Virus record (IMG/VR): IMGVR_UViG_2734482533_000006
Direction: 5' to 3' (one strand)
DNA length: 4,313 bases
DNA from: a virus
Taxonomy: Duplodnaviria; Heunggongvirae; Uroviricota; Caudoviricetes
Each line of letters starts with the position of its first letter. Position 1 is the first letter of the stretch. This document shows, piece by piece, positions 1,371 through 2,057 of the stretch. Below the pieces are notes generated by a model. The model did no database searches. It had not been told where the DNA came from and saw nothing but the letters and a program-made list of their open reading frames with translations. The translations under genes and the position numbers were made by a program.

Positions 1371-2057
1371 TCACTCCTTCTCTTCTTTACCGTAGTGGAG
1401 TTGACCAATTTTGATAAGAGGGCGTCCCTGAGATTTGCGGTGTAGATTGGTATCGCGCAGAGAATACACACAGCCACAATATTCCTGCTGATAGAATTTT
1501 TCGCGCTTGCTGATTTCAATCATACGGGACGAGCCGCCCTGCTTGCGCCAGTTATAATCCCAGTACACCATGCCCGGATAATGCGCGACGGCTCGCCGCC
1601 CACAGTCGTTAACCTGCTGCATATTTTTCCAGCGTGAAATGCCCAGTGAACTGCTGATCACACTGAAACCATTTTCAGCGGCGTACAGCGCTGTCCGCTC
1701 AAAACGCATGTCAAAACACATGGTGCAACGGATCCCTCGTTCGGGCTCCCATTCCATTCCTTTGGCTCGTTCAAACCAGTTGTCTGTGTCGTAATCAGCA
1801 TCAATAAACGGCACGCCGTGTTGTTCAGCAAAGCGAATATTCTCATCCTTACGAATTAAATACTCTTTCTGAGGATGAATGTTCGGGTTGTAGAAAAAGA
1901 TGGTGTAGTCGATTCCCGAGGCCTGAAGCGCCTCCATCACCTCACCGGAACATGGAGCACAGCAAGAGTGCAGTAGTAGTTTGTTTGCCCCGTTTGGGAG
2001 CTCCAATTTGGGCCGTTTGAAATCAGCAACTGTCATAAATATGTTTATTGGGGTCAT
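1371..2057 (-). CDS. DUF208/QueH-like protein (putative epoxyqueuosine reductase family Fe-S enzyme), 228 aa.
   Basis: Motifs read from the translation: [37 protein letters not shown]. This matches my recollection of the QueH/DUF208 signature. No clear SD before either candidate start (M1 at 2057 or M8 at 2036). Gene symbol withheld pending HMM confirmation. Confidence 0.65.

Follow-up and report, generated by a model that had tools for sequence, protein, structure and literature searches.

The window analyzed here, that is, the whole stretch of 4,313 nucleotides from the IMG/VR virus record IMGVR_UViG_2734482533_000006, carries on its minus strand a genuine and intact gene for the epoxyqueuosine reductase QueH, placed as cargo in a lambdoid prophage background. 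The reading that best accounts for our results, to which we give a probability of roughly two in three (0.68), is that this gene is functional, is transcribed from a promoter of its own, and would allow lysogens to convert epoxyqueuosine (oQ) to queuosine (Q) independently of vitamin B12. This reading is built on the family and fold of the protein, the conservation of its ligand positions, the phage context, the origin of the gene, the purifying selection acting on it, and the conservation of a promoter motif upstream of it.

A preliminary description of this DNA, made from its letters, had proposed a 228-aa open reading frame at 1371..2057 on the minus strand, with HSCCAPC, NPNIHP, RC..C, and CGC motifs, and had assigned it to the QueH/DUF208 family. 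The frame and its motifs are present in the translation (HSCCAPC at aa 30-36, NPNIHP at aa 57-62, RCTMC at aa 110-114, and CGC at aa 194-196, read in the 228-aa frame), and the assignment is now backed by a profile, by a sequence match to solved structures, by the predicted fold, and by the alignment of the motif cysteines. The HMM search suggested in that description returned the Pfam family PF02677 (QueH) with an E-value of 1.9e-65 and 220.6 bits, over a cut-off of 23.5 bits, with aa 27-201 spanning profile positions 1-174 of 175, a match far beyond chance. A sequence search of the PDB matched nothing but QueH of Thermotoga maritima (E=5e-22; 7LC5 and relatives), with aa 27-203 of the window protein aligned to residues 4-178 of 7LC5. 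The structure prediction that had also been suggested gave an AlphaFold model of moderate confidence (28 sequences, pLDDT 70, pTM 0.71), which has an adenine-nucleotide-alpha-hydrolase-like fold as in 7LC5. With this model, the five best Foldseek matches were again T. maritima QueH entries (E about 4e-9, TM 0.78-0.80 normalized to the target), followed by the related PP-loop proteins TtuA/LarE at E about 1e-4.

Compared with T. maritima QueH (7LC5/7LC7/9DEU), the window protein is alike in family and fold, with 29-30% identity over 170-183 structural-alignment columns, and the cysteines of the CC..., CxxC, and CGC elements align between the two. C32, C33, C111, C114, C194, and C196 were invariant in both the 14- and 28-sequence alignments of Enterobacterales homologues and T. 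maritima QueH. The two proteins differ at C36, which lies opposite Asp13 of the T. maritima enzyme; cysteine occupies this position in five of five diverse QueH homologues (31-49% identity) and is thus the usual QueH state. The PDB also holds the T. maritima QueH mutants C9S and D13N, which indicates that the corresponding positions are important. We take the motif cysteines of the window QueH to be metal ligands, with the exact residue-to-metal assignment as reportedly given by Li et al. 2021. At its ends, the window protein also reaches beyond the T. maritima enzyme, by a short stretch at the N-terminus and by a basic tail of about 25 aa at the C-terminus; the Enterobacterales orthologues share both.

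The assignment of the gene to QueH is not new and is already correct in RefSeq. NCBI/RefSeq use the name QueH in about 1000 complete E. coli genomes, and the PHROGs family of the gene, phrog_3217 (188-position profile), bears the label 'unknown function'. Since a search of the protein against NCBIfam models gave no match, the name given by PGAP must rest on other evidence. The phrog_3217 profile begins inside the protein, at Met 41 of the 228-aa frame, from which it follows that phage annotations systematically called a truncated open reading frame devoid of the CCAPC motif.

One element of the preliminary description, the start codon at position 2057, had to be moved. The N-termini of homologues match the second in-frame ATG, at 2036; the orthologues of Kluyvera and Enterobacter quasihormaechei have in-frame stops just upstream of the position equal to ATG 2036, the Enterobacter hormaechei orthologue has no ATG equivalent to 2057, and PGAP calls a 221-aa protein (WP_012421537.1) in a 100% identical locus. 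The exact 221-aa form, under the title 'MULTISPECIES: epoxyqueuosine reductase QueH [Enterobacteriaceae]', occurs on at least 1000 contigs, and the 228-aa form on 147. The gene most likely spans 1371-2036, and 2037-2057 is probably part of its 5′ leader (Table 1). The lack of a recognizable Shine-Dalgarno sequence, pointed out earlier for the upstream ATG, applies to both start codons, neither of which is preceded by a GGAG-like sequence. The closest chromosomal orthologues are also devoid of it, and Erwinia orthologues carry GGAG. This absence is a lineage trait rather than a sign of decay, because the closest chromosomal orthologues share it.

Table 1. Features located around queH in the window, with the evidence for each
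Feature	Position	Strand	Evidence
DUF1367 / NinB(Orf)-like gene, start of the nin-type region	59..454	-	PF07105 E=1.5e-46; phrog_319 'NinB/Orf' E=6e-26
hokD-type toxin gene	988..1143	-	Pfam HOK_GEF E=9.8e-23; PGAP hokD; phrog_251
hok/sok regulatory region, Rfam RF01794	1138..1313	-	117 bits vs gathering score 59, E=3.7e-27, full model 1-157
Sigma-70-like promoter TTGATT-18-TAGAAT, 22 bp past the queH stop	1320..1349	-	Promoter scan; just upstream of the sok/hok region
Minimal mobile queH cassette (50 bp leader/promoter + gene)	1365..2107	.	Homology edges in IMG/VR loci and HannyBb
queH CDS, 221 aa, most likely true extent	1371..2036	-	PF02677; 7LC5; PGAP WP_012421537.1 in a 100% identical locus; homologue N-termini
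Seven in-frame codons (MTPINIF) before the likely start; earlier proposed ATG at 2055-2057	2037..2057	-	Present in the phage lineage only
Putative extended -10-like motif TGCTACACT, about 35-43 nt upstream of ATG 2036	2071..2079	-	Phylogenetic footprint
Hypothetical protein upstream of queH, 118 aa, weak zinc-ribbon similarity	2205..2561	-	phrog_1621 (unknown function) E=3e-56; PGAP CDS
DUF977 / Ren-like gene, end of the replication module	2619..3041	-	PF06163 E=1.1e-33; phrog_142 'Ren-like exclusion protein' E=2.7e-44

The surroundings of the gene are those of a prophage. A copy of the locus with 100% identity was found in E. coli FDAARGOS_944, in a prophage inserted beside ybhA/modC, whose genes run in the order integrase, excisionase, RecE, cI/Cro-like, YdaT, O-like, DnaC-like (ydaV), DUF977, hypothetical, QueH, hokD, hypothetical, DUF1367, DUF1364, DUF1133, four tRNA genes, holin, and lysozyme, and then terminase and structural genes. 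Together with the phage HannyBb and with the Ren-like and NinB/Orf-like PHROG neighbors, this annotated locus bears out the earlier placement of the gene in the nin-like slot of a lambdoid prophage. The neighbors of queH being phage genes, the remark that it lies outside any tRNA-modification context also stands, and so does the position of hok directly downstream on the same strand, where both the hok CDS (988-1143) and the Rfam sok element were detected. The 118-aa gene on the other side is phage backbone and not part of the queH cassette; its match to Zn_Ribbon_TF fell under the Pfam cut-off. The orientation of queH is that of the early-right genes (cro, O-like, DnaC-like, and Ren-like), its G+C content of 0.49 is also that of the prophage, and the promoter/terminator scan predicted no terminator between the upstream gene, queH, and hok. 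The sigma-70-like promoter past the queH stop, judged from its position, is probably the hok/mok promoter. Apart from sok, no riboswitch (e.g., preQ1) or other RNA family was found near queH in Rfam at E<=1, and folding of the 181-nt region upstream of queH gave no unusual structure (z=-1.1).

Two further observations concern the same prophage. The segment 988-1349 of the window, on the minus strand, constitutes a complete hok/sok type I toxin-antitoxin locus, usually found as one block with queH at about 93% identity. The four tRNA genes (Ile, Arg, Thr, and Gly; L001:17102-17412), located downstream of the DUF1133 gene, include no Q-modified tRNA with a GUN anticodon.

The limits of the transferred segment were drawn from the edges of homology. 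Homology to the window starts abruptly at position 2107, 50 bp upstream of ATG 2057, in about 60 of the best 80 of 188 IMG/VR prophage loci, and the sequence upstream of 2107 varies between prophage backbones. In the IMG/VR loci, the homologous block usually extends from this edge through hok/sok to about 906, and in HannyBb the cassette homology covers 2107-1365 and is followed by a 373-bp insertion before hok. A recurrent mosaic junction and a variable occupancy of the slot, which are the marks of moron or auxiliary cargo, are thus both found for queH. More broadly, the interval from the Ren-like DUF977 gene to hokD (equivalent to window positions 1371-2618) is a cargo hotspot in E. coli prophages, and elsewhere this slot is filled, in place of queH, by DUF7167, DUF551, or Ead/Ea22-like genes or by several hypothetical ones. 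Just beyond the common cassette edge, at about 2117-2132 on the minus strand, there is a GC-rich hairpin, CC(A/G)CCC-GAAA-GGGCGG, which a second cassette variant, bounded at 2131, retains; since the hairpin has no U-tract, it is not a canonical terminator.

A candidate promoter was revealed by a footprint alignment of the 85 nt preceding the start codon in two phage alleles and ten chromosomal orthologue loci. Upstream of the ATG, this footprint is invariant at the columns GCTAC..T alone, and the preceding T is found in at least 90% of the sequences. The resulting consensus, TGCTACA(C/A)T, lies about 40 nt before the ATG and fits the extended -10 pattern TGnTAnnnT, while the orthologues of Erwinia show TGACA...TA(C/A)ACT equally far from the ATG. 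In the window, the motif TGCTACACT falls within the cassette, and its conservation suggests that it is a putative native promoter carried along from the chromosome. A generic promoter scan called no promoter upstream of queH, the site going unreported because its -35 element is weak. As far as signals of its own are concerned, this cargo gene has a conserved -10-like motif in the cassette, a weak -35, and no predicted terminator.

The closest relatives of the window protein are encoded by chromosomes of Enterobacterales. Full-length amino acid identity is 92% to the QueH of E. hormaechei (94.7% over a 208-aa core), 91% to those of Scandinavium and Kluyvera, 87% to that of Serratia marcescens, 83-89% to those of other Enterobacter, and 77-86% to those of Erwinia, Proteus, Providencia, Rahnella, Pectobacterium, and others. 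The cores of the Enterobacter, Scandinavium, and Kluyvera proteins are 93-95% identical to that of the window protein, with no change in the motifs, and no indel separates the window QueH from any of 16 other loci, 15 of which are chromosomal orthologues. The copies of E. hormaechei, Scandinavium sp., and Kluyvera ascorbata also equal that of the window in length, start position, SD-less AU-rich leader, and TGCTACA(C/A)T motif, but they lie among ordinary chromosomal genes whereas the window copy is in a prophage beside hok/sok. Chromosomal queH genes neighbor LysR-budA, Hcp, GH28, YgiQ, or GlgP, and the phage marker genes of the window are absent from the chromosomal orthologue loci. These comparisons suggest that queH was captured fairly recently from an Enterobacter/Scandinavium/Kluyvera-like chromosome together with roughly 50 bp of the native sequence upstream of it. 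They also qualify the earlier statement that Enterobacteria normally use QueG, which holds for E. coli, where queG is present in 5426 of 5426 complete genomes, and fails for the order, since chromosomal QueH (77-92% identity) is common in Enterobacterales. In E. hormaechei B56, a 200-aa tyrosine recombinase of the Phage_integrase family (L087:5283-5885) is encoded about 115 bp upstream of queH, beside LysR-budA-budB, and the queH of this species may be mobile too.

Within phages, the gene is under strong purifying selection. All 82 copies examined in a phage context are intact, and the proteins encoded by their 20 nucleotide alleles number only 8. From one main allele group to another, dS was 0.09-0.17 for a dN of 0.004-0.006, giving dN/dS ratios of 0.033-0.041. 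Relative to outgroups, the phage lineage has slightly more substitutions than its Enterobacter sister, all of which are conservative and outside the motifs.

Carriage of queH is widespread in E. coli, with 995 of 5426 complete genomes (18%) positive for the gene, almost always as a single chromosomal copy and always annotated as QueH. Since queG is universal in these genomes, every queH carrier holds both reductases. The usual genomic signature of QueH, which consists in replacing QueG or clustering with tgt/queA and is typical rather than defining, was not observed for this gene. The gene is also present in Escherichia albertii and Shigella. In IMG/VR, 188 viral contigs carry queH, and the best 80 of these 188 have 99-100% protein identity. 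Among deposited phage genomes, it was found only in Escherichia phage HannyBb, where a protein with 96.5% amino acid identity is annotated as 'hypothetical' between the Ren-like and Mok/Hok genes. The survey of prophages that had been proposed earlier for this family places queH between the Ren-like and Mok/Hok genes in HannyBb and usually beside hok/sok in the IMG/VR prophage loci. Most other tblastn matches labeled as phage (human-faecal 'Bacteriophage sp.' and others) were left uncounted as unverified or evidently bacterial contigs. For example, soxR, dadA, a chromosomal queH, and type VI secretion genes are all found in 'Acinetobacter phage MD-2021a' (CAKLQH020000001.1, L003, 328 kb), and this record, like 'Staphylococcus phage SA 1306 Kay' (OR844989.1, L165, 282 kb, UNVERIFIED_ORG), looks like a bacterial chromosome contig.

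In the mechanism that we propose, queH and about 50 bp of 5′ region with an extended -10 promoter would have been taken from an Enterobacteriaceae chromosome and would now travel, usually with hok/sok, in the Ren-like/NinB-like slot of lambdoid or Rac-like prophages of Escherichia and Shigella. The gene could be read in two ways, since it has both the orientation of the early-right operon and a promoter of its own: in lysogens it would be transcribed from that promoter, and in the lytic cycle by read-through. The enzyme would rely on an Fe-S centre, without cobalamin, to turn the epoxide of oQ34 into the cyclopentene of Q34 in tRNA-Asp, -Asn, -His, and -Tyr, and lysogens would finish queuosine synthesis with or without corrinoids. 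Activity on tRNA, expression in the lysogen, and any fitness benefit are presumed in this scheme. The effect of B12 independence is deduced from the B12-dependent QueG carried by the hosts and from the fact that E. coli has no de novo synthesis of B12. oQ accumulates without B12, and Frey et al. in 1988 reportedly tied the oQ-to-Q step to cobamide supply.

QueG is cobalamin dependent for the conversion of oQ34 to Q34 (PMC4646009), QueH is described as the cobamide-independent alternative (PMC6461909), and Staphylococcus aureus has redundant QueG and QueH that differ in their expression (PMC13443448). The QueG of E. coli (YjeS) would share its reaction, oQ34 to Q34, with the window QueH, but it has an unrelated fold, requires cobalamin and two [4Fe-4S] clusters, and is encoded by a core chromosomal gene adjoining nnr and tsaE. 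The universality of queG in the host speaks against the best explanation, as QueH would be redundant whenever corrinoids are available. So do the missing Shine-Dalgarno sequence, although the closest chromosomal orthologues share this trait, the scan that called no promoter for queH, the lack of a predicted terminator before hok, the slight excess of substitutions in the phage lineage, and the moderate confidence of the structure model. To our knowledge, no phenotype separates oQ from Q. Furthermore, NAU made up 0.545 of the NAY codons in prophage genes and 0.570 in host genes, a difference that is not significant (p=0.27) and shows no enrichment of the NAU codons read by Q. A stronger version of the proposal, in which a widespread family of temperate coliphages, with QueH expressed from its own promoter, frees the last step of Q synthesis from B12, converts the tRNA epitranscriptome of the lysogen, and has a measurable effect on decoding or fitness, appears doubtful to us. 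If it were true, a shortage of corrinoids or a loss of BtuB would leave the Q-tRNA of lysogens fully modified; such a loss could, speculatively, come about by selection for colicin or phage resistance.

Other explanations were weighed against a role of queH in the lysogen. The gene could instead serve the lytic program, early-right read-through after induction or infection raising Q over oQ and improving the decoding of phage mRNA. Its co-orientation with the cro, O-like, DnaC-like, and Ren-like genes, with no terminator predicted between them, suits this idea, as does a 2026 preprint (10.64898/2026.03.05.709803) reporting that in Shewanella phage infection up-regulates the queG of the host and moves the balance from oQ toward Q. 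Yet the cassette retains a chromosomal promoter motif that read-through does not need, and the prophage genes are not enriched in NAU codons; the biochemistry would moreover be identical, so that this account overlaps with the best explanation. We consider it rather unlikely. Less probable still is that queH, of chromosomal origin, persists as an almost neutral passenger, hitch-hiking with the hok/sok addiction locus to the benefit of neither phage nor host. Redundancy with a universal queG, the usual company of hok/sok, and a slot that acts as a dumping ground for varied cargo would all be compatible with such a passenger, but a dN/dS of about 0.04, with 82 of 82 copies intact across 20 nucleotide alleles and a dS of up to 0.17, is unlike an unselected gene, and in HannyBb queH is intact despite the 373-bp insertion that separates it from hok.

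The preliminary description had also raised the possibility of a substrate other than tRNA, such as a 7-deazaguanine in modified DNA, and this idea found no support; its partner genes are absent from the annotated prophage. An epoxy-7-deazaguanine in phage or host DNA, another epoxide, or a small molecule would be the target in this case. Phages do modify DNA with 7-deazaguanines (PMC6884629), but nothing in our analysis points to such a substrate. The annotated 32-kb prophage with the identical gene has no DpdA/TGT-like transglycosylase, QueA, or FolE/QueD/QueE/QueC, and neither DpdA/TGT nor FolE/QueD/QueE/QueC is annotated in the HannyBb region. PADLOC, run on QueH and its immediate neighbors at E<=0.01, gave no defense-system match besides two sub-threshold HTH-type matches to the DUF977 protein, and the core of the protein, at 93-95% identity to chromosomal QueH, has unchanged motifs. 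We regard a non-tRNA substrate as by far the least probable of these explanations.

Carriage by phages and prophages is the novel aspect of a known enzyme family, whose fold and reaction were already described. Genes of the queuosine pathway carried by phages are known to serve DNA modification, and a 2019 survey of viral Q-pathway genes found no homologues of QueA, QueG, or QueH (PMC6884629). We found no mention of a prophage- or phage-encoded QueH or epoxyqueuosine reductase in the searchable literature. Like the 'moron' cargo found in the ren-nin region of lambdoid phages, queH is a single gene with a promoter-like element at a recurrent mosaic junction. Unlike such genes, it has no predicted terminator of its own and matches the prophage in G+C content, and its product is a tRNA-modification enzyme. 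A complete, tRNA-specific enzyme of Q maturation resides in prophages of about one in five E. coli genomes. If the enzyme is active, a prophage would alter the micronutrient need of tRNA modification in its host, and differences in oQ/Q between strains would track prophage content. The advance would lie in ecology and physiology, not in mechanism.

Finally, some observations concern the window sequence itself. A run of 41 N at 3124-3164 splits the DnaC-like (ydaV) gene and replaces about 317 bp of the near-identical locus L001, so that the real sequence is longer here than the window shows. Another IMG/VR contig, UViG_2671180821_000008 (L007), matches window positions 1-3123 at 100%. Both ends of the window (1-105 and 4212-4313) diverge from the otherwise 99-100% identical FDAARGOS_944 prophage, as is typical of lambdoid mosaicism.
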